Part shown: in pieces, positions 9,419 through 45,858 of the stretch
Position numbering within the stretch: the first letter of the stretch is position 1
Layout: each line of letters opens with the position of its first letter
From: Chrysochromulina tobinii
Taxonomy: Eukaryota
DNA: 50,808 bases
Reading direction: 5' to 3'
NCBI GenBank assembly: GCA_001275005.1
Contig: JWZX01003134.1
Span: forward strand, 1 to 50,808
Translations under genes and position numbers: made by a program
Notes under the pieces: model-generated
The model's input: the letters and a program-made list of their open reading frames with translations, nothing else
Told to the model about the DNA's origin: nothing
Databases searched by the model: none

Positions 9419-10874
9419 TCAGTCGCTCGTCAGGAACTCGAGCATGGAGTCGAGGTCGTCGCCAAACTGGGCGTGGGCTTGGACGGCGCGTGGTAGGCTG
9501 AAGCCCATCGCGAGGAGGGTCTGCACCTCTTGGCTCAACGAGAGCTCGTCGGCGCTTCCCGTACTCCCCGCGCCGCCACAACCGCCGCCGCCGCCGCCGC
9601 CCCCAACCCCGCCGCCGCCGCCGCCACCGCTGCCGCCGTCGCCGCCGCCCACCTGTACAAACGGTGCGCCGGCGGCCGCGGCGGCCGCCGTCGCGGGCGC
9701 GCTCCGGGTGGGCGCCATGGCGGGCGCCCAGGGGCTGTAGACTGGTAGTGCGGGCGGCTTGGCGAAGTCATGCACGTCGAAGGGGCTGGGCGCGCTCGCT
9801 ACAGTGCTCACGGCATCAGCGTCCGACCCCGTATGCCCGCACGAGGCGGAGGGCTCGCTGGCGCCGCCGAAGGAGACACCGCTCGCGTCCCCGCTCGCGT
9901 CTCCGCCCCATGCGGCCTCTCCGGCCCATGAGCCGATACCTGTGGGGAGAGAGGGGAACAGGCGCCGTCGTGAGCACTTGCATGCAGGCCCAACAGCTTC
10001 TGGCCACTCCGGCCCATGCGACGATACCTGCGCCTGGCCAGCTGGCTGCAACTGCTCCACCAGCCCACCCGACGCCAGCCTCGGCGGCGCTCGCGGCGAG
10101 GGCGGCCTGGAGCAGCGCGTCCTGCGTCGCGTCCACGTCCGACGCGTCCCGCGCGGAGAGCAGAAGCTGTGACTCGATCGCGGACGTTTCGGACGCTTGC
10201 TGAGCTTGCTCCACCTGCATGCGATCCGCGAGCCCCGGGTGGAAGCCCGGGAGGCCGAGGCCGTCGCCCACGTCGGCTACGGTCGGGTCGACGATCACGT
10301 TGTAGTGCGACCGGCCGTGGTAGCTCAGCCGCAGCGGCGCGCCCGCCTCGCCCTCGGACGGCGCTGTGAACGTATTCATGGGCGCCTCCGTGTCGCCGCG
10401 CACGTCAAAGACGTGCACGGGCCGGTTGTAAATCTCCGAGATCGCCTGGATCTCGAGGTGGTTGCCGAACACGCGGTCGCGCCGCTTGCGCCGCAGGTAC
10501 GCGTCAAAGTCCTCGGTCACGTACTGCGAAAAGTGGTCACGCTCCTTCTCCATGTGATCGAGGCACAGCCGGCGCACGACGTCGTGCATCTCGGCGTCGC
10601 CGTACACGCGGTCCGAGACGGAGCGGAAGAGGCAGTTGCCATCATCGAGCATCCGGCGGATGTGCAGGCCGCGCGCGCGCAGACGCTCCTCGAAGCGCCG
10701 CTCCAGCTCCACGTACTCCGCCGCGGAGATGGGCTGCTGGTCGAGCTCATCGTCCGAGTTGACCGGCTCATAATTGTCTGCGCTTGGGCGCGGCGGTGCG
10801 CGCGCGGCGGAGGGCCGGGGCTCGTAGCTGATGTTCTGCGGCGTGTACTCGTCCAACGGGTCGATGCGCGTCAT
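9419..10874 (-). CDS. OTU-domain deubiquitinase (OTUD5-like) with UIM-like and C-terminal UBA domains (exons 10874-10028, 9939-9419)
   Basis: DDGNCLFRSVS catalytic Cys box, GNHLEIQA, LSYHGRSHYN His box; LLQAALAAS; LLAMGFS...AVQA UBA; an 88-nt phase-1 intron joins the two ORFs; start may lie further upstream. Confidence 0.9.
9940..10027 (-). other. Spliceosomal intron with a 26-nt duplication of the downstream exon and the TGCATGCAAGTGCTCAC acceptor module
   Basis: CAG|GTATCGTCGCATGGGCCGGAGTGGCC...CCCCACAG|GTATCGGCTCATGGGCCGGAGAGGCC. Confidence 0.85.
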
Positions 10875-16612: not shown

Positions 16613-18236
16613 TCGAGCGCACCCGGGACTCCGAAGTCCGGGACGTCATGCTCGCCGTGCTCCTCGCGAAAGCGGAAGAGGTCATTCGCAAGCAAGATCC
16701 GAAGCTCGTTCTTGCCCAGGTCTTCGTCCTCAAACGCGAAGGCGCTCTTGACGCGCGCGGCCTCCTCCTCGGAGGCCATCGCCGTCACGCACGGCGCCTC
16801 GACCGCCGGCAGCGCGCCAAAGTAGGCAAAGCCGAGCGCCGCCGCGGCGCTCGGCCGTTTGGCGGGATCAATCTCGAGTAACGCCTTGAGGAGAGCGATC
16901 TCGTCCGGCGAGGCGCTGGGGCATGCGTCGCGCAGCTTGGCATCGACCTCCAGGCTGCGCTCCTCGTCGCCGAGGCTCGAGAGCGCCTCCTTGGCGCACA
17001 CATTCCGCACCTCCTCCACCGCCTCTGCGGAGTATCCTGCGAGCTCCGCGGAGGTCGGATCTCCCAGGATGCGCGCGATGACTGCGAGCTGATCGTATCG
17101 CTGGCGCTCGCGCTGCTCGTCGTCGAAAGAGAAGGGGATGCAGTAACGGCCAGGGAAGAGGGCGCCCGTACCTGACGTCGACACGCGAGCAAGTTTGCCT
17201 GATGAGAGAGGCACTCAGATGCCATCGGAGGCCATCAGAGGTCATCAGAGGTCATCAGAGGTCATCAGAGGTCATCAGAGGTCATCAGAGGTCATCAGAG
17301 GTCATCAGAGGTCATCAGAGGCACCCAGAGGCACTCAGATGCCATTAGTGGAGATCAGAGACCCAATCCGGGATGCCGGGGCGACCGGGGTAAGATTCGC
17401 GTACGCAGGTGCGACTGAGGAGTGAGCTCGAGCAGCTCCTTGAAGATGCACCCGACGGCCCACATGTCAATCGCTGCGCCGTACTTTTGACGTAGGATCA
17501 CCTCGGGCGCGCGGTACCATCGCGTGACGACGTAGAAGGTCATCTGAGCCCTGAGCGGCGGTGGCTTCGCCTTGAGCGGCGGTGGTTCGGCCGCCGCATC
17601 GCCACCGCCGCTCACCCCCTCGGCGGCATCCTCCATCGCGTTGTCCACCTGCGTGGAGGTCTCCTCGAGGCGCTTGGCGTACCGCGGGTTCGAGTCGACG
17701 CGCGCCAGCCCGAAGTCGCACAGACGCACGACGCCAAAGGGTGTGGCGGGCGTCACCTTGCCCGTCGAGACCAGGATGTTGGCCGGCTTCAGGTCGCGGT
17801 GGATGCCCGATATGGCGTGGACGTGCGTGAGGCCCGCGCACAGCTGCGCCATGAACGAGCGCACCTTGTTCACCTCGAGCGACTGCTTGGACTTGATGAT
17901 CCTGCGCATGTCGGACTCCATAAACTCGGTGATCATGAAGATGTCGTCGAAGGTCTCTATGTTGGCGGGCATGGCCAGCCCTCGCAGAGAGATCACATTT
18001 GGATGATGAAAGTCGCGCAGAAGCCGGATCTCGCGCAGCACCTTCTTGGCTTCCTGAGCGTCGTAGAAGACCTCCGAGATGCGCTTGATGGCGACCGTCT
18101 CGCCAGTCGCCGTCTCGACCGCACGCGCCACGACCGAGTACGCGCCACTGCCGATGAGCTTGACATTCGTGTAGTCCTTTTGCACCGCCCGATCCGCGCC
18201 TGACCAGAAGGCCTTCAGCTCTGCCTCCGAAGCCAT
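16603..18236 (-). CDS. Mitogen-activated protein kinase (exons 18236-17405, 17171-16603)
   Basis: IGSGAYSVV, VAIKRI, LREIRLL, HRDLKPANIL, CDFGLAR, TFYVVTRWYRAPE, LFPG, DQL; a 233-nt phase-1 intron joins the frames. Confidence 0.92.
17172..17404 (-). other. Intron containing a 10-bp (CTCTGATGAC)n array
   Basis: C|GTACGC...GTCAG|GTACGG; 8 exact GTCATCAGAG units on the plus strand (17241-17320) plus degenerate flanking units. Confidence 0.85.
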
Positions 18237-25935: not shown

Positions 25936-27837
25936 ATGAGCGCCGTCGACCCATACACCATCTTCGACAGCGTGGTGCCGCCAACAAGCGAGCCGGTCGC
26001 GGGCAACGACCCTTTCGACTGCTTTGGCGCGCCGGCGGAGCATCAACCGGCCAAGCGGCCATGCAGCTCGCCATCGCCAGTGCTCCCGTTGATTCGCCGC
26101 TTTGTGGCTGCACACGTTGGCGATGCGATCGCAGACTTGAGAGCGGCGAGCTCGTCTGCCGCTGCTACGCTCGCGTCCCATCTGAGTGATGCAGCGGACC
26201 ACTTGGCAGCCGTACCGGCCCAATTTTCCGGCTGCCGGTCCGCTGCGGAGAGCGTGGCTGACGCGGCGTGGTCCACGCTCACACAAGATGGCGCGTGGCC
26301 TCACGCTTCGTGGCGAGAGGCGTACGTGCTCGCGCAGCTCGCACTGGCCGCCGTGTGCTCGGCATGTGACAATGACACGGATGCCGCCCTGCGCTGCCTC
26401 GATAGGGCCTTCATCCTCGGTGGGCCCACGCAAGTGTTCCGCGACTGCGTCGAGATCCTTGACGAGCCAAAGCCGCAGAGAGCACGGCGATCAACGGGTC
26501 CACTGCCGACGGCCGACATCAACGAGGACGCGCCTGCTGCAGAGCCGTGGAGGAGGCGTCTGGAGGAGGTGCGACGTGCCCGTGACGGCGCGCCGTCTCG
26601 GGCGAGGCTTGCTGTTCGAGCCGTTGAGCGACAACCCTGCCCTCCGACGGCGCAAGCGTTCCGCGCGGCGCGGCGTGGCGGCGCTCCGCTTCTCTTCGAG
26701 GGCGTCGCCGACGGCTGGCCCGCACTTGAACAGTGGCAGGACTTTGGCTGGCTGCGCGACCAATACGGCGCGCGGCTCGTACCGGTAGAGCTGGGGAGCC
26801 TCGCGAACGCGGCGGGCGCCGTCGTGGGCGCGACCGCCGTGGGCGCGGTGGGCGCCGTCGTGGGCGCGACGGGCGCCGCCGCGGGCGCGACGGACGCCGC
26901 CGTGGCCACCGCCGCTGCGACGGATGGCGCCTCGATGGGCGGTGCGACGAGTGGCGGTGCGACACAGCCTGGCGCCCACCATGGCGCGTGGAGGGAGAAG
27001 TTGATGCCGCTGGCCGACTTTGTAGACACGTTCTTGATGGCTTCGGAGCCCGGCACGGAAGGCCACGCCGCGGCCGGTAAGGCGACAGCTGAGGCGGCCG
27101 GTGAAGCCGCCGAGGACGCGCAGGCGCGACACCCTCACGCCGTGTCGAGCGCCCGCGCCGTCGTGGGCTACCTCGCACAACACAATCTCTTTGAGCAGAT
27201 CCCGCGGCTGCGTCGCGACTTTGCGATCCCGGCGCTGCTCGCGGGCGGCGTGCAGCACATGCACGCGTGGCTTGGCCCTGAGGGCACAGTGACGCCTCTT
27301 CACTTCGACTCGTACGACAACGTGCTCGTGCAGGTCGTCGGCCACAAGCTCGTGTATCTCGAACGGGCCTCGAACCTAATCTGGACACCTCGCCTTGCAT
27401 GCAAGTGCTCACCACAGCGCCCTGCAAAAGCCACGTGCCTCGAACCAAATCTGGACACCTCGCCGTGCATGCGAGTGCTCATCACGGCGCCCGCTCCTCT
27501 TCCCCACAGGTCCCTCTTCGACTCGGGTCAGACGCCGCGCCTCTATCCCAAAGAGGGCGGCGGCACCGGCGTCGATGCCCAAGGCAACGTGAGTCCTCTG
27601 ATTACCTCTGATTACCTCTGATTACATCTGAGTACCTCTGATTACCTCATGCTCATCTTTGGTCAGGTGAGTGCGGTCGACGTCGAGGCGCCCGATATGG
27701 GTCGCTTCCCCGAGTTCGCGCACGCCGTCGGGTACGAATGCGTCCTCGGTCCGGGGGAGGGCCTCTACATCCCGGCGGGCTGCTGGCATCACGTGCGAAG
27801 CCTCAGCCCGTCGTGGTCCATCTCCTTTTGGTTCTGA
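25936..27837 (+). CDS. JmjC-domain hydroxylase, JMJD5/KDM8-like (exons 25936-27353, 27510-27588, 27667-27837)
   Basis: [74 protein letters not shown]. Confidence 0.92.
27354..27509 (+). other. Stop-free 156-nt intron with two tandem ~70-nt units carrying the TGCATGCAAGTGCTCAC module
   Basis: GT|GTATCTC...CCCCACAG|GTCCCTC; removal restores HKLVSLF; units start at 27367 and 27437. Confidence 0.8.
27589..27666 (+). other. 78-nt intron with a (CTCTGATTAC)n array
   Basis: AAC|GTGAGTcc...GTCAG|GTGAGTgc; ~5 ten-mer units; removal restores GNVSAVDVE. Confidence 0.9.
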
Positions 27838-33735: not shown

Positions 33736-36700
33736 TTATCGGCTGGCTGTGAAACGCCATGGGGGCCCGGCCTCGGGGATCGAGGCTGGATGACGCCATG
33801 GGGGCCCGGCCTCGGGGATGGAGGCTGGATGACGCCATGGGGGCCCGGCCTCGGGGATGGAGGCTGGCTGACGCCATGGGGGCCTGGCCTCGGGGATCGA
33901 GGCTGGTTGACGCCATGGGGGCCCGGCCTCGGGGATCGAGGCTGGCTGACGCCATGGGGGCCTGGCCTCGGGGATGGAGGCTGGATGACGCCATGGGGGC
34001 CCGGCCTCGGGGATCGAGGCTGGCTGACGCCATGGGGGCCCGGCCTCGGGGATCGAGGCTGGCTGACGCCATGGGGGCCCGGCCTCGGGGATCGAGGCTG
34101 TAATGTGGAAGTCTGCGGTTGATCTCCATGTAGGCTCCTCAAAATCAGTGTTCCCGTTCTCAACCACCGCCTTCTCAGCCGCCGCCTTCTCGGTCACCTG
34201 CACGGCCGCCAACTTCTCGGCCGCATCCTTCTTGGCCGCCGCAGCTTTCTCCGTCGCCGCCTTCGCCTTGGCCGCCTGCGCCTCGGCTGCCGCCTTTGCC
34301 TCAACCGCCGCCTTCTCGGCCACAACTTGCCATGCCTTCGCCGCCTTCACGGCTGCAGCCGCCTTGCTCGCTAGGCGTGTGCGCTGCTGCTCTTGTTCAC
34401 GCGTCTGGGCGCGCTTGGCAGGTGGCGCAGCGACGGGCGCCGAAGCGTCAGGCGCCGTCACGGGCGCTCTTTGTTCAGCGACGGGCGCTGCGGCGACGGG
34501 CGCTGCGGTGACTGGCGCTGCGGCGACGGGCGCTGCGGCTACGGGCGCTGGGGCGACGGGCGATGGGGCGACGGGCGCTGGGGCGACCTCCGCGGCCTCC
34601 TTGTCTGCCTTCTCCTTGGCTTCTGCGGCCTCCTTCTCGGCCTTCTTCGCCGCCTCGGCTGCCTCCTTCTCCGCCTTCTTCGCGGCCTTAGTGTCGATCG
34701 CGGCAGCCGTGGGTGGCTGCAGCTGCTGATCTCGATTCGGCTGGTGTGGCTCGTTCACAGCGCGCTCGACCAGTGCATCGTTAGCGGGCGCTGCCGCGAC
34801 GGGCGCTGCCGCAACGGGCGCTGCCGCGACGGGCGCTGCCGCGACGGGCGGCATCCTCGTAGACGTTGCACCGTCATCCGCAGCCCTTTGATCGAGTTCG
34901 CCATTCGCGAGACGCTTGAAGATGGTGTTGGGCTCGGAGCAACTCGCGCTTCGGGGCATGCGAAGGTTGGCCGCCTGCCCCGAGGCAGGATGGTTGTGGA
35001 GGTCGGTCGAGTTCCATGCAAACTCCGGCTGCGTGTGAGATGGTTCGTCGTCTTCGCACCGGCACGTCATTGCCGACACGTCCCTCGCCGCCGCCCTGAC
35101 GAGTCGCTTCTGGTCAGACTGACGGAGGACCGTCGCGCTCCGTGCAAGCTCCGTCTTGTTCGTCACGATCAGCTCATCGTCCCCCGGGTTCGTCAGAATG
35201 GGCCCATCGCCATCGCACGGACAGGTCGGTGATGTCGGTGAGAGGCCGGAGCTCGCCAGCATGATTGTCGTACCCGCACCCCCCATCGGCTCGATTCTCA
35301 GGCCAACGGGCCTCAGAGCGTCGCCGAGGCACTTGTCGGCAGCGCTGGCACCTGCCCAGCAGCTCTCGATGGCCAGCTGTCCGTCTGTGTAAGTATTAGA
35401 GACGGTCGCGAACGAGGTGGGGGGGCGCGGGAGGCTGCAGTCAAACTCGGTGCCGGCAGGACTGTACTGACGGAACGAGGCGAATTGCCTGTCCGCCTCG
35501 TTTCGCAAGAGTGACATCATGGCGACCTTGGGGTTCTTTGCGATGGACCGAAGTGCATCCTCCCATGCCACCATCGTCGCCTCATTACGTGCGAGCATGC
35601 ACTTTGTCGGCGGCCTTTCCTTCACGAGCTGCCCGGCCGTATTGGCGTTGACAAACTGCGGGAAGAAGTTGAGCGTGATCGTGCAGTTCGCGGGGGGGCA
35701 GACGTCCTTGGGCACTCCTTCACACACAAGATCGCGCACGCGGACGAAGTAGTCGGCGAAGTCGTACTTGAGACCCAAGTACAGCGAGGATGCATCGCCA
35801 GTGAGGTTCGTAGGTCGCATGCCCGGCTTCTTCGAGCTACTGAGCGCCAAGATCTTCTGGTTGAGTACTGGGTTGCTCCTCCTCCGAAGCGTACCGGTGC
35901 CGGAGTCGAAGATCGCATCCGCAAAGGACGACATGTTGCACCCGGTGACGTGTTCGGTCGTCGACCACACCATGCTCGTGTACGAGAAGGGCTCGCCGAG
36001 GTCGAACACGCACGGGTGGGTATTGAGCGCATGCCCAAACTCCGTCGCGCCACTTTCGTGGTCAGAGATGATGACGAGCACCTGTGCGAAAGACGAGCCA
36101 GCCTTCTCGGCCGCCGCCTCCTCGGCCGCCTCCTTCGCCGCCTCCTCCTTGGCCGCCGCCTTCTCCTTGGCCGCCTTCTCCGCCGCCTCCTTCTCCGCCG
36201 CCTCCTTCTCCGCCGCCTCCTTCTCCGCCGCCGCCTTCTCCGCCGCCGCCTTCTCCGCCGCCGCCTTCTCCGCCGCCGCCTTCTCCGCCGCCTCCTTCTC
36301 CGCCGCCGCCTCTGCCTCAGCATAGGCCTTCGCAGCCGCAGCCTCCGCCGCGGCCGCCGCCTCCTCGGCAGCCGCCTCCGCCTCAGACGCGGCCTCCTCG
36401 GCCGCCGCCTCCTTGGCCGCAGCCTTCTCAGCCTCGATTGCCAGCTCACACGCCATGTGGCACTCGGTTAGCATGAAGTCTGGGTTGGCCTCACACTCCC
36501 CCGCCGCAGCCCATTGGGGGCAGTCAGCGGGCTCGGGCGCGAGAATCGCGGCGAGCGTCGCCTTCTCCGCCGCCGCATTCTCTTCGTATGCCTGCTGGGC
36601 CGCGGCGTTTTGCGCGGCCACTCTCGTGGCTACGTCCGAACGCTCGCACGTGACCTTACACTGTGTCCTCGCGCACCACTGGGAGAGGCACTCCAGCGCG

Positions 36701-38130
36701 CATTCGCCCTGCAATGCTCGATGGGCGCAGTTCGGCGGCTCGTCAGCGGGGACGAGGAACTCGGTGAGAGCGGCCCTCTGGGCGATCCCGATTTCGAAGG
36801 CCGCCTTCTCGGCCGCCGCCCTCTCGGCGTACTCCTTCTGGGCCGCGGCGTTCATCTCGGCATCTGCCTTCTCGAGCGCCGTCTTTCTCGCGGCCGCCGC
36901 TTGCTCCGCCTCTGCCTTTCTAGCTGCCGCCGCTCGCTCCGCCTCTGCTTTCCTTGCCATTGCGGCTTGTTCGGCCGCTTCCTTTCTAACGGCCGCCGCC
37001 TTCTGATAGGCCGCCTCCTTGGCAGCCGCCTTCTCGGCCGCCGCCTTCTCCGCCAGCGCCTTCTGGAATTCCGCCTCGACGGCCGCCGCCATGCCGGCCG
37101 CTGCCTCCTCCGCTGCTGCCTTCTCCATCGCTGCCTTCTCCGCCGCCGCAGCCGCATTCTCCTCCGCCGCCGCCTCGATCGCCGCCTGCTCCGCCAACGC
37201 CCTCTGGAACGCCGCCTCGACGGCCGCTGCCTGCTCGGCCGCTGCCTTCTCCGCTGCTGCCTTCTCTGCCGTCGCCTTTTCCGCTGCCGCCTTCTCGGCC
37301 GCCGCCTTCTCGGCCAGCGCCTTCTGGAACTCCGCCTCGACGGCCGCTGCCTGCTCGGCCGCCGCCTTCTCGGCCGCACTCGCCGTCGCCGCCTTCTCGG
37401 CAACCGCCATCTGGAACGTCACCGCCGCCTTTTCTCTTGCCGCCTTCTCGGCCGCCGCCTTCTCGGCCACCGCCTTCTCTGCCGCTGCCTTCTCGGCCAC
37501 CGTCTTCTCGGCCGTCGCCTTCTCGGCCACCGCCTGCTCGGCCGCCGCCTTCTCGGCGACCGCCTTCTCTTTATTCGCTGCCTCCCTCTCGGCTGCATGA
37601 TCCTTGATCCATGACTTCCAGCAAGCAGCCTGGCACTCCTTGCGCATCAGGGCCGACTTGGCGGCCGAATTTGTGCTCGAGGCGATGCACTCGCCCGCAT
37701 CTGCCCGCGCGTCGCACCCTTCAGGGTCTGCTAACTCCCAACTGGCAGACTCCGGGGGATCCACGGGCCTTTTGATCTCGGTCCTTGACTCGGTCATGGC
37801 CGGCGCGGTCGGCTGGGTCGTGGTCGGCGTAGCAACCGTGGCCGGTGTATTGAGGTACCACGGTGTTCTGCCATCTTTTCTGCGGACTGCCGTCCCCGAG
37901 GCTGGTATGGTCAGCGAGGCTGGCTGGGCCTTCTCTGCCGCCGCCTTCTCCGCCGCTCGCTCCGCCGCCGCTCGCTCCGCTTCCGCCTTCTCCGCCGCCG
38001 CTCGCTCCGCCGTGACATGAGGCGTGGCGATCTCTGTGAGCGCTTGAAATGCAGCATTTGGGGGAAGCGCATGCGCGACGAGGGCGAGCGCTAGACATAT
38101 GGCAAGACGGCAGAGGTAGCCGTGGCCCAT
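33736..38130 (-). CDS. Giant secreted protein: EKAAA helical repeats, three ShK-like domains, sulfotransferase-like domain, C-terminal 13-aa repeats
   Basis: Signal peptide; [25 protein letters not shown] and two related motifs; [29 protein letters not shown]; (EKAAA)n; (APVAA)n. Confidence 0.8.
33754..34100. repeat. 39-bp minisatellite, 9 copies
   Basis: ACGCCATGGGGGCCYGGCCTCGGGGATSGAGGCTGGHTG. Confidence 0.95.
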
Positions 38131-38372: not shown

Positions 38373-39872
38373 ATGCGATTCTTCTCACTGTGCATCATCG
38401 CAGCGGCGCGTACCGCTCTTGTGAGCGCGGTTGCGCCGCGTAAGCGCATGTTGATGATGGTGGGCGGAGATCTCGACGATTACAACCGCGAGATCTTCGA
38501 GTTGATCATCTCGAACGCCGGTGGATCCAACAGCACTCTCTGCGTCATTGCAACCAATGGCGAAGATCCATGCTGCGACCCCGACAGCAGTTGGGTGTTC
38601 TACCAGCAGTTGTTCACCGGTTACGGTGCGACCGACGTCAAGTACATCAACATCGATGTGAACAACAGCTTTCCAAGGTCCCACACGGGGAACGCGTATG
38701 ACCCTGCGATCATCGAGCAGATCAAATCGTGCGACGGGTTTTGGTTTGGCGGCGGCGACCAGACGCGCATCATGAAAGCCTGGTACGACAACAACGTGAC
38801 GGGCAAGCTGAACACGCGAACGCCGACACCGGCGATGACGGCACTGCTTGAGCGCTTCGAGGAGCATGGCGGCGTGCTGGCGGGCTCGTCCGCCGGCACT
38901 GACTGCCACAATGCGAAGGTCATGGTCACCGACGGTGACTCCTACTCCGGACTCGTGAAGGATACTGTCGCATACAACTACAGTGAAGGTGCGGTCGACC
39001 TGGACGACGGTACAGTGACCTTCGACCCGAATGGAGCGCTTGGCACGTTCTCGTATGGGCTCCTTGACACCCACTTTGGCGAGCGCGGTCGTCAGGGCCG
39101 GATGATTCGGCTTCTGATGGACACGCTGCACCTGCCGAATGGGTATCCGATTGGGTTTGGCGTCGACCAGAACACAGTGATCATCGTGGACAAGGATGAC
39201 CCTTCGCACGCCATTGTCCGAGGCCAGGCCGGCGTCACCATCTGTAACGCGTCGACCCTGATTGCACCTGATTGCACCTGATTGCACCTGATTGCACTTG
39301 ATTGCACCTGATTGCACCTGATTGCATGAGCAGGTAACGTGGAGGACGCGTCGACGACGCAGTGGGCGGGCGCTTGGTCCGTGACCAACGTGCGCTGCAA
39401 CTACGCCACGCCGGGCGATACCGTGCACATGACCACAGGCACCATCTCCTTCGGTGCGGACAAGACGGCTCTCAAAGGACGGGAGACTGCCGAGCAGCCC
39501 TACACTTCACGCGACGTCTTCAACTCGCCGAAGAACCCCTCGACCACGGGCAGCACGCACGAGTTCGTGCTTCAGGCCACGTCGCTGTTCAACTCGACAG
39601 CCACGACATCGACCGGACTGACCTTTGAGACGGAGCCCAAGACGTTCGCCGTGCGCATGACGAAGGATGACAGGTCCGTGGCCTATCAGGGAATGCACAA
39701 CTTCAATGGCACTCTACAAAGCTACACCTCCTACATGGACTTGGTGGTAGACATCTTCGCCCTCGACACCAAAGAGGCACTCAGCATGGCGTTCATGGGT
39801 GGAGTAACGGCTGAGCGCGCGCAGATCAAAGGGACGATAGCCGCCGCCCGTGCGCCACGCGAAGATAAGTAA
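38373..39872 (+). CDS. Secreted cyanophycinase-like serine peptidase, S51 (exons 38373-39243, 39334-39872)
   Basis: Signal peptide; LMMVGG, GFWFGGGDQTR, AGSSAG nucleophile, LDTHFGERGRQGR, GFGVDQNT. Confidence 0.88.
39244..39333 (+). other. 90-nt intron with a (CTGATTGCAC)n array
   Basis: T|GTAACGCGTCGAC...GCAG|GTAACGTGGAGGACGCGTCGAC; 7 ten-mer units. Confidence 0.9.
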
Positions 39873-42278: not shown

Positions 42279-45200
42279 TCAGGCCCTGCCAGTGCCGCGC
42301 GCGGTCACCACGCCTCGCGGCACCGGAGCACCACCCAACGGTCGGCCCTGGTGCTCTGTGGAAGGGCGGGCGGTTAGGGCTCCCCGGCGGTTCTCGCCGG
42401 CGGCCGGTGAGGGGGCACCACGGGTGAGGGGTCGACCCGAGCCTGCCTTTGGCGTCTTCGGCGTCTTCGGCTTTGCGGCTGGTGGCGGCGGCATCGCCGG
42501 CAGTGTGAGCGGCGGCGCCGCCGCGGCAGGTGCAGGTGCTTGGGTTTTGATCTCTGCATCGATGTCGACGCTCGTCCGTCGCTGCTTCTCAGTGCGCTGC
42601 TGCTCCTTACGCTGCTGCTCCCTCAACTTCTCTCGAGGCGAGATGTACCGTTCGGGCGGCGGCAGGCCCAACTCCTTGGCACGATCCTTGAGGACCTTGA
42701 ACTCGCGAACCTTGACACTCTCACGTGCCGACACGTGGTTGACGAACTCCTCCTCATAGGCCGCATTCTCGGCCGCGAACGCCTCACCGGCCGCTGCCTT
42801 GAGCCCCGCTGGCAGCGGGCCAGCCGCCTTTGCGAGAGAGCGCAGCCAGGCCATCTGCAGCGTACCGACCTCGACCTCACGTGTGGCCAAAAGGAGTTCT
42901 ATCGCCTCGTGTGGCCGTCCAACGACCGCGTGGGCCGCGGCGATCGCATCTCTCTCGAGGAGCTCTGGAGTGAGCGCTTCCTCCGGGCGGTACATGGTCG
43001 ACGGACTGGGCGAGCGATCGCGCACCGGGCTGTCCCGGGCGCCTCTCGGGGGCGTGCTGTCCCGGGCGCCTCTCGGGAGTGGCTCGTCGTGCGCCCACCG
43101 GCCCAAGCGAACGCTGTCACGGGGGTCGTGCGGATTCTTGGGTAGCACTCCCTGCTTTCGCATGGGCGCGTCCAGAGACAGGCGCAGGTTGTGCACCTGG
43201 ACGGACGAGTGGATCGCATCCAATAAGAATGGTCATCAGTGGTCATCAGTGGTCATCAGTGGTCATAAGCAGTCATCAGAAGTCATCAGCAGTCATCAGC
43301 ACTCATCAGCACTCATCAGCAGCCATCAGTGCACCTGGCTCTTCTCGACCGCCTCCATCAACTGCGGTGCCAAAATAAAGGCCAACTCGGTCGCAGGAGC
43401 TCCCCCATTTTCTCTTTCGAGCGTCTGTGCGATGGCATCGAGCGCTTCTTCGGTGGCGTGGCACAGATACGCGGAGTACGCCGCTCGGGCTTCGGAATAA
43501 GGCACGGTGCCACGGACATCCTCCTCGTCGTCCTTCTTCCCCTTCCCCTTCTTGCCGCCTTTGGGTCTTCCCCGTAGGCCTTTGGGGCTGCCCTTTGGGT
43601 CTTCGAAGACCTTTGGATCTTCGTCTCGGCTGGGTCTTCGTAGGCCCTTGGGGCTGCTGTCGGGACTGGCGGCCGCGTGAGTCCATGAGTGATTCGAATC
43701 GTCTTCGGAGCCCATCAGAGCTCGAAGTCCTTTGGGCAGCTCCTTGAAGGGCACTTCCTCGTCGACCCAGAAGGCATCCCCGAGGGTGAAACGCGTCGCC
43801 TCGGCCGCCTCCGCCTCCGCCTCCGCCGCCGCCGCCTTCGACGCCATTCGCGCCGGTCTGAGTGTCACCGAGACTTCAGTCGACATTGGAACTAGGGACG
43901 GCGGGGAGGGCCTTCCTAGTATGGGAACCGCCCCGGTGCCTATATTAGGCAAGAACGTTTCGGACGAATCGCCGACCACGCTGACCTTTTCGCCCTCCTT
44001 GTCCTCGATGGGCGTCGCTGTGGGAACCTCAAACGGCAGCAGCACTTGTCGCGTCTTGGCAAGGGCCCTCGCCCGCGTGCTGAGCTTGTCGCGCGTCGTC
44101 TCGGCGACGCGCTCGAGGACCGCCGGAAGCATGCAAGCAGACGCGCTGTGTGTGAGCGAGGCGATCGCGTTCTTTGCGAGCAACTCGACGCGCTCGCACC
44201 GGCGACGCACGCGCTGCAGCCCTACCTGATGAGGGAGGCAATCAAGAGGTCATCATCAGTGGTCATCAATGGTCATCAATGGTCATCAATGACTGCAGCC
44301 CTACCTCCGCCTCCGACAGCTGCTTGCTCGTCTCCTCGACCTTGAGATCGTATGCGACGCGCGCCTCGTAGTTGCTGTCGCGCGCGAGCGCGGCCTCGTC
44401 GTAGACGGCGTTGAGCCGGCGGGTAGACTCGTCCTTGCGAGCGTGCTTCTGGGCCTCGACCTCCTCCATCGTCGCGCGCGCCTCCATCTGCTCCTCCCAG
44501 TACTCGAGGATCCCCTTGACGTGATCGCACATGGTCAGCTCCTCGAGCTCGCCCCACGCCGCTCGCAGGTTTTTATGGCGGCGCCCCTCCCTCGTCGCGA
44601 CCGCAGTCATCTGTGCGACCACGCCGCTCGTCGCGGCGCGCTTCTCGGCTGCTTTGCGCTGCTCCCAAAACCTGTCAGCCCCACGCTTGGCGGACTCCTG
44701 CTGCGCCTCCGCCAACTCCCTCTGCTGACGCTTCTGCTCGCCTGCCGCCTGGTCCCTCAAGAAACGTAACCGCTCCCTCGAGACCCCGCCGCCGAGCGAG
44801 CTGTTGCTCGCGCCACTCTCTCCGGCGGCAGCCTGGAGATCGTGCATCACCTTCTTACGGCGCGCCTCCCTCTTCTCCTCCGCCGCCACCTGCTCCTCCT
44901 GCAGGCGCTCCAGCGAGCGCTCCGAATGCTCCTGCATCGCCACAGCGACGTCCATGCCTTCCTCCAACACATCCAGCCGGACGGTGAGCTCGATGAGCGC
45001 AGATCGCAGATAGGCGAGCTTCTGGTTGAGGTGCGGGCGGCGTGTCTCGAGCCGCTCGGCCATCATCTCGTACACGAGCGCGTCCGTCTCCGCCTGTGCG
45101 GCCTTATGCGCAGCCTCTTTCCACTCAGACTCCAGCTCGGCAGCTACCCTTGCCAGCTTGCCGCCGTCAGCGTCCTCACGCGCGCGTGCGTCCGTCTTCG

Positions 45201-45858
45201 TCGCGAGCTCCCCGCGGAGCTGCGCGAGCTCCTCGGCCTTCTCAAGGCGCAGCAGGTACAGCTCGTTATGTATCTCGCAGCTACTCAGCGCGTCGTCATT
45301 GTACTTGTTATGAATGATCTGCACGACGTTCGCCATGTGCCGGTCCACCTTCTCCTCGCGGTTCTTCCACTCCTTGAACGCGCCTTCCTTGGGCGTGGGC
45401 GCGGAATCGACAAGCGCGAGCCTCATGGGCGGCCGCGGCCGCGTCGGCGGTCGCGCAACCGGCAGTGACGAGCTCTGCGAGACGAGTGAGGTCGTCAGCG
45501 TGCCGCCGCAGTCGAGCGTGAACTCAGACGACTCGGCCGTGGCCGTCGAGGCCATGGAGATGCGCGCTAGAGCAGTCTTGACGCCGAAGAGCTCGTCATC
45601 CTCGAAGGAAGACGCTGTCGACACCGTCAGCGTGTTCGGCATGAGCTTCCGATGCCGTGTGAGCGGCGCGTGCGGAACCAAGCGAGGCGGCCGTGGATCG
45701 GATGATGCTGCCCAGAGTGGCGGAGAGGGCAGCGTCCACGGAGAAGGACCCTTGGACGATGCACCTCTCAGCGGCACGGCCGACGTTCCCGGGCGCTCGA
45801 GCAGCGCGGCTCGGGCGGATAGGTAGGCCGAGCGCAGCCCGGCCTCTGCGCCGCTCAT
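42279..45858 (-). CDS. Large coiled-coil protein (exons 45858-44305, 44225-43335, 43196-42279)
   Basis: Three long ORFs joined in phase 0 by two GT-AG repeat introns; long E/A/R/K-rich helical stretches. Confidence 0.75.
43197..43334 (-). other. 138-nt intron with a 10-bp CTGATGA-core array
   Basis: CCAG|GTGCACtg...CCAG|GTGCACaa; ~10 GGTCATCAGT-like units on the plus strand. Confidence 0.9.
44226..44304 (-). other. 79-nt intron with a 10-bp (ATTGATGACC)n array and an exact 12-nt exon duplication
   Basis: GAG|GTAGGGCTGCAGt...CCTCCCTCATCAG|GTAGGGCTGCAGc. Confidence 0.9.

Follow-up and report, generated by a model that had tools for sequence, protein, structure and literature searches.

A recently gained 79-nt intron in Chrysochromulina tobinii, possibly patched in from the tail end of another intron

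The C. tobinii gene for KOO24031.1 contains a 79-nt intron (44226–44304, minus strand) that is real and precisely spliced and that, judging from related gene calls, appears to be a recent, lineage-restricted gain. It lies within a 50,808-nt stretch of genomic DNA, the whole of which was analyzed and is here termed the window. We tentatively propose, with a probability of about 0.45, that the intron arose recently when a staggered cut at AG|GT was patched with the 3′ end of another intron, copied in 5′-truncated form and probably by reverse transcription of intron RNA. The empty or different states apparent at this site in close relatives suggest that existing introns supply their tail ends to new ones. 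The origin of new spliceosomal introns is a long-open question, and RNA-based intron copying has been proposed but is rarely testable. Here, one coding position apparently occurs in three alternative states across present-day lake lineages of an alga that can be cultured; the donor families can be identified and the footprint can still be read. Such a site permits direct tests of proto-splice targeting versus selection, of parallel gain, and of RNA versus DNA templates.

The host gene comprises three exons of about 1118 codons in total and apparently encodes an uncharacterized coiled-coil protein; a Pfam search of the three exons returned no family. It is organized as follows.

42279–43196, minus strand: exon 3.
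43197–43334, minus strand: intron 2, 138 nt, with a 10-mer-family array and a 6-nt duplication (10 nt with the upstream CCAG); spliced in RNA contigs of runs X12 and X15.
43335–44225, minus strand: exon 2.
44226–44304, minus strand: the 79-nt GT..AG intron, phase 0; an RNA joint skips 79 nt in runs X13 and X14.
44305–45858, minus strand: exon 1, with a predicted start.

Both introns are located at AGGT, a motif that occurs 16 times in the coding sequence, and the site of the 79-nt intron is the only one of these that reads AGGTRNG. Public gene models mishandle such introns: KOO24031.1 (537 aa) misses part of exon 2 and stops inside intron 2, while RNA backs a three-exon protein of about 1118 residues (42279–45858). 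Separately, a 21-nt in-frame insertion in exon 3 (43077–43090; L007:4661) was seen in the wild haplotype L007 and in wild RNA run X15.

Splicing was checked in four RNA runs. Contigs of two (X13 and X14) joined 44213 to 44293 with 79 nt skipped and ends CT..AC, 14 letters at the joint fitting either side; the junction was uncovered in the other two. The wild RNA run X15 gave no bridging of this site among the pieces listed. An alternative 91-nt splice via the AG of the second repeat copy would also be in frame, but both bridging RNA contigs skip 79 nt. Retention of the intron would bring in an in-frame stop after eight filler codons. With GT..AG ends and exact removal from RNA, the element has the properties of a spliceosomal intron. 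It is also present in DNA, as contigs of DNA run X4 cross from the exons into it on both sides.

On the minus strand the site reads, in order, exon ...GGAG, GTAGGGCTGCAG (44304–44293), a 67-nt filler (44292–44226) terminating in TGATTGCCTCCCTCATCAG, and a second GTAGGGCTGCAG (44225–44214). The exact direct repeat is 14 nt (AG plus 12), and the 10 further matches after the shared GT have a chance of ~2e-6 at window composition. The parts are listed below.

44293–44306, minus strand: upstream copy of the 14-nt repeat, consisting of the exon AG (44306–44305) and the 12 nt that give the GT donor.
44214–44227, minus strand: downstream copy of the repeat, consisting of the acceptor AG and 12 coding nt (VGLQ), the ancestral exon sequence; homologues have the four residues without a gap.
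44226–44292, minus strand: the 67-nt filler, from a multi-copy 10-mer intron family, with five branch-point-like YTRAY words and the acceptor.
44253–44291, minus strand: 10-mer array of 3.9 copies (Tandem Repeats Finder).
44226–44244, minus strand: terminal 19-mer common to other 10-mer-family members, with 2 mismatches to 17199–17217 and matches in many contigs of runs X4 and X12–X17.

The last 7 nt of the 19-mer are able to pair with 44259–44253. At its 5′ joint the filler shows one extra T and no microhomology. The original prediction of a minimal intron bearing an exact exon duplication was thus borne out by the RNA joint and the repeat. Its size of 79 nt and its estimate of about four 10-mers were right; its outer boundaries (44214..44304) took in an exonic copy (44214–44225), and its 12-nt repeat becomes 14 nt when the AG is counted. 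It overlooked the multi-copy nature of the filler and the apparent use of the same site by a second family.

Five 10-mer arrays are present in the window. All five lie in GT..AG introns, distributed over four genes, with the CTGAT/TTGAT strand in gene sense, and none of the five was found between genes or antisense. Splicing was shown for two of these introns (both in the host gene) and was inferred from reading frames or gene models for the other three.

39244–39333, plus strand: 10-mer-family intron in the cyanophycinase gene; exact duplication of 6 nt, which can also be read as one of 22 nt carrying a 9-nt deletion inside it.
27589–27666, plus strand: putative 10-mer-family intron in a JmjC gene; 6-nt duplication.
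17199–17404, minus strand: 10-mer-family intron in a MAPK gene, predicted from the kinase frame; no clear duplication.

Four of the five members start with a copy of the next exon, a GT-starting duplication of 12, 6, 6 or 6 nt (the last also readable as 22). Short microhomologies, read by eye, were seen at the 5′ joint in three of these four (43197, 39244 and 27589). The 5′ ends begin at differing points of the unit, and lengths range from 78 to 206 nt. Acceptor ends fall into several types among the five members, arguing against a single master element. Similar sequence is therefore found in introns of unrelated genes, as for introners in the broad sense, without end-to-end similarity among copies; a recent gain with empty orthologous sites is indicated at the protein level for the 79-nt intron. 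Intron makers of this type would tend to escape searches for end-to-end similar introns. The Emiliania genome paper is said to describe 10–11-bp repeats in introns.

The family extends beyond the window. Runs X18–X21 share almost no words with the window and were left aside. In DNA run X4, 926 contigs matched the window, and the summed depth on two arrays was 2949 and 70193 versus about 50 elsewhere, values that do not represent a copy number. At another locus (a contig of RNA run X14), 46 nt of the filler were matched without a difference. Where contigs ended at the family acceptor, the next bases were GT in 13 and GC in one of at least 14 informative ends, a tally from which five flankless rows were dropped, which leaves a further five rows outside, and in which loci may repeat between runs. 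Four scans of viral contigs for family motifs gave 0, 2, 7 and 0 stretches, and prokaryote genomes gave 5; all 14 lacked arrays or duplications and were attributed to chance.

Family sequence occurs in RNA contigs, one of them joined end-to-start, although contigs cannot separate RNA from DNA carry-over. This RNA-library contig (87 nt in X13 and X17; runs X12, X13, X14 and X17 on window 44224–44269) passes from a family acceptor end into GT plus unrelated bases and then into a family body. Its depth was 32–64 versus 2–5 for the host gene, and the arrangement is absent from the window; the contig could derive from intron units in tandem at a different locus or from a circularized intron. A loose end at 44249 in run X14 suggests a further copy elsewhere, whose GT-to-AG length would be only about 31 nt and which an RNA contig retains.

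A second intron family (TGCATGCAAGTGCTC...CCCCACAG) was represented twice in the window.

9940–10027, minus strand: second-family intron in an OTU-domain gene; 21–26-nt duplication with 3 mismatches.
27354–27509, plus strand: second-family intron of two units in the JmjC gene; 7-nt duplication, as judged from other alleles.

This family has no tandem tail, yet leaves the same insertion footprint as the 10-mer family. Duplication lengths are 6, 6, 12 and 6 or 22 nt in the 10-mer family and about 7, about 21 and 21–26 nt in the second family. The C. parva model P0060 reads into the intron at 27354–27509. The window has two units there, whereas the C. parva model and several wild calls have a single one, and part of the duplication is gone from the window exon.

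The state of the site in related lineages was read from collection proteins. Most of these continue past the exon end into the intron up to the first stop, in the manner of open-frame gene calls, so that their tails report the underlying sequence. The comparison drew on 15/35 and 15/30 members of the two main clusters and on two singletons. Thirty distinct gene calls span the site, a count that omits the window's own spliced model; 16 carried the filler of the 79-nt intron (class A), 12 fell into class B and 2 were empty. The intron was present in every class A gene call listed that reaches the site. Class B calls read VGLQRVR-PACMHALITARAPFPT-GRAAARASPVRARRVAR, in which the tail is a shifted-frame reading of the second copy of the exon start and the filler matches the second-family intron at 27354 at 9/16 residues. 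From these translations we infer that the AG|GT in question holds a different intron in class B, about 70 nt long and with some 21 nt duplicated.

The two empty calls, P0020 and P0029, come from contigs of 3591 and 6198 nt. Each continues across the site without interruption and ends at KSQVH, inside intron 2. As this segment is spliced in RNA, they look like DNA without intron 1; read-through calls could also stem from partly spliced transcripts. Two other calls (P0085/P0109) end KSQVHC, a variant start of intron 2, and P0102 departs from the host protein about 24 residues before the site, reflecting another insertion or a chimera. Twelve distant homologues (25–40% identity, from DNA or transcripts) align across the site gap-free, indicating that VGLQ is old exon. 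A metagenome scan for the host gene returned 244 candidate stretches, of which two were confirmed, both class A.

Over 450 residues of exon 1, class A differs from the empty class at 10–15 positions and from class B at 18–26, with only 9–17 for the mosaic class B row P0027. These differences are about equal to or above that between C. tobinii and C. parva in the neighboring gene. Since those two are 98.1% alike there, the three classes may be sibling species. Class A split from class B plus empty in the tree (support 97/94), the rooting of which is unreliable due to the long branch (1.98) of the outgroup P0084. The mosaic rows P0014 and P0027 reflect either recombination or chimeric assembly. 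The 79-nt intron was identical (79/79) in the wild haplotype L007, which is about 1% diverged and shares variants with wild RNA run X15; its intron 2 differs by four substitutions and one unit. An intron unchanged at this divergence is not the youngest possible insertion. The claim that the intron is young and variable in presence fits relatives that appear to be empty (P0020, P0029) or to hold a different intron, together with the 12 gap-free homologues. Its placement of this variation within the species is not supported by these calls, in which the empty and alternative alleles belong to diverged classes.

Two gains are the shortest account of these states, and the translated calls make a parallel gain by the second family at the same site probable. 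One gain followed by replacement and loss is possible given the long outgroup branch and the two mosaic rows. Elsewhere in the window, the cyanophycinase intron (39244–39333) is probably variable too, since the call P0036, on a 31.7-kb contig, reads through it. The MAPK intron was found in 15/15 gene calls listed.

The footprint at these sites combines sense orientation and a donor-giving duplication of variable length with two unlike ends, one exact at AG|GT and one ragged, a combination that fixed-length DNA introners do not produce. All the mechanisms considered below can account for the duplication by a staggered cut that is then filled in; the template is the difference. We favor RNA-templated copying because an excised intron ends in AG, which would explain why one end is exact, why only one strand is seen and how two unrelated families could both be used. 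In this model, copying would be primed by a nick at AG|GT and would start at the 3′ terminus, ending in AG, of a family intron that had been excised. The second strand would be cut a variable 6–26 nt downstream and filled in, generating a duplication whose first bases form the new GT donor, to which the truncated copy would be joined, often at short microhomology. With branch-point words and acceptor supplied by the copy and the donor by the duplication, splicing would restore the mRNA exactly, allowing the insertion to survive. Two different intron families would have taken this route at one site in different lineages. A precise 3′ joint and a truncated, microhomology-joined 5′ end are characteristic of L1-type target priming, and the small sample here shows the variable duplication, fixed end and truncated end of target-primed retroposed inserts.

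Several observations temper this preference. Selection alone would also retain only AG-ended, GT-started, sense insertions in exons. The sample is small (five plus two introns), the 79-nt intron itself has an extra T rather than microhomology at its 5′ joint, and the MAPK member is without a clear duplication. Retrohoming of linear group II introns in eukaryotic cells resembles our case in that the 3′ joint is exact, the 5′ end is truncated and joined at microhomology or with extra bases, and the 3′ exon receives a staggered cut, a pattern reported for partial reverse splicing and cDNA ligation (PMC3280974). That system is an engineered ribozyme with its own reverse transcriptase, and its 5′ overhang is reported lost, not duplicated; as described there, it is a mechanistic analogy only, fitting the joints and not the repeat (PMC3280974).

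DNA-templated repair is somewhat unlikely as the source of the intron. Here a staggered double-strand break would be filled in and joined with a patch copied from another intron's DNA, an abundant template, and only acceptor-ended patches would survive in exons. No reverse transcriptase is needed, and the variable duplication, the microhomologies and the internal deletion in the duplication at 39244 suit error-prone repair. The model has a precedent in Daphnia pulex, where the available text describes staggered-break introns that are polymorphic among close lineages, with exon–intron direct repeats of 4–12 bp and frequent parallel gains at one site (PMC4202315). Parallel, different introns at one site with exon direct repeats are likewise read from the translations here. 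As far as that text goes, C. tobinii differs in having filler from recognizable, multi-copy, acceptor-carrying families and duplications of up to about 26 nt (PMC4202315). Against repair from DNA, it does not on its own predict the exact AG end, the single orientation or the absence of non-intronic copies (5/5 arrays; 13/14 GT), all of which are left to selection.

A tiny SINE-like retro-element on the opposite strand, with a fixed 5′ end, a hairpin and a 10-mer tail, would insert by target priming, its antisense landings at GT happening to splice. The plus-strand filler can be read as a 34-nt stem with 7-bp pairing and then the tandem tail (filler z −2.3); duplications vary, and the microhomology is on the tail side. 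We nevertheless consider this improbable: folding of whole introns was no better than that of shuffled sequences (z −0.56 to 0.31, 4/4), the five arrays in the window include no copy outside introns, and the second family gives the same footprint without a tandem tail. The folding of whole introns likewise gave no support to a hairpin/MITE reading.

The tandem-duplication model of intron origin offers another route, in which plain duplication of an AG|GT exon piece created one ancestral intron whose middle each lineage later replaced or expanded in its own way, with loss in the empty class. Classes A and B do have the site and the first 12 intron bases in common, and the weak rooting of the tree suits this course. 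These common bases are, however, merely the exon copy; a duplication of 14–22 nt is alone too short to splice, the fillers match two dispersed families with their own acceptors, and three events are needed versus two. Its prospects are slim.

Least probable is a conventional non-autonomous DNA-transposon introner that carries the acceptor and takes its donor from the target-site duplication: a 7-bp inverted pair closes the last 34 nt, and the splice-site logic is that of Symbiodinium and Polarella classes 4/5 and 6/8/10 in the accessible part of their description (bioRxiv 10.1101/2020.10.14.339549), yet duplication length is not fixed (6–26 nt), 5′ ends are ragged, acceptor ends differ among members and inverted repeats at both element ends are lacking.

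Comparison with described introners places the C. tobinii families apart from each. In the text available, DNA introner classes have a fixed duplication of 3–8 nt (bioRxiv 10.1101/2020.10.14.339549 among the sources). The introner-like classes 4/5 and 6/8/10 of Symbiodinium and Polarella glacialis are, per the same partial source, multi-copy elements that give the 3′ splice site while the 5′ end of the target-site duplication gives the donor (bioRxiv 10.1101/2020.10.14.339549). Their duplication is fixed per class (4 or 8 nt) and their termini are inverted, in contrast to the 6–26 nt, ragged 5′ end and tandem 10-mer body found here. Introner family 5 from a Chrysochromulina sp. TARA MAG shares the genus, short multi-copy introns, a duplication and the lack of terminal inverted repeats, but in the searchable portion of the paper its duplication is 4 bp and its splice-site logic is opposite to that in C. 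tobinii, since the element brings the 5′ site and recruits the 3′ site from its target (PMC9860276). The searchable portion of the supplement to that paper names C. tobinii a single time, in the genome list. The 10-mer intron family in C. tobinii was found nowhere described in the accessible literature, though the bioRxiv and PMC9860276 supplements could still contain it. Introns are mentioned once in the available text of PMC4580454, and the main text of PMC12130899 gave no match for 'haptophyt' or 'tandem'. A link to Replitrons was dropped: the accessible text of PMC10288648 mentions one C. tobinii locus and nothing connecting Replitron to 10-mer-family introns.

RNA-templated copying might extend further than the 79-nt intron, a generalization we regard as doubtful. 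Once excised, spliceosomal introns of Chrysochromulina would have their 3′ tails retro-copied into expressed genes at AG|GT proto-splice sites without a dedicated transposon, guided by the spliceosome or by RNA, through partial reverse splicing or target priming. Any abundant intron family could then act as donor, and the same site would be struck repeatedly in living populations.

Two further features of the window were recorded. A cyanophycinase gene (named from KOO24027.1) is present in this eukaryotic alga at 38373–39333 and downstream. Long coding minisatellites occupy 33754–37600, with a 39-mer in 8.9 copies and alanine/glutamate/lysine-rich 15- and 30-mers; this region differs from L006 (93% over 3.3 kb).
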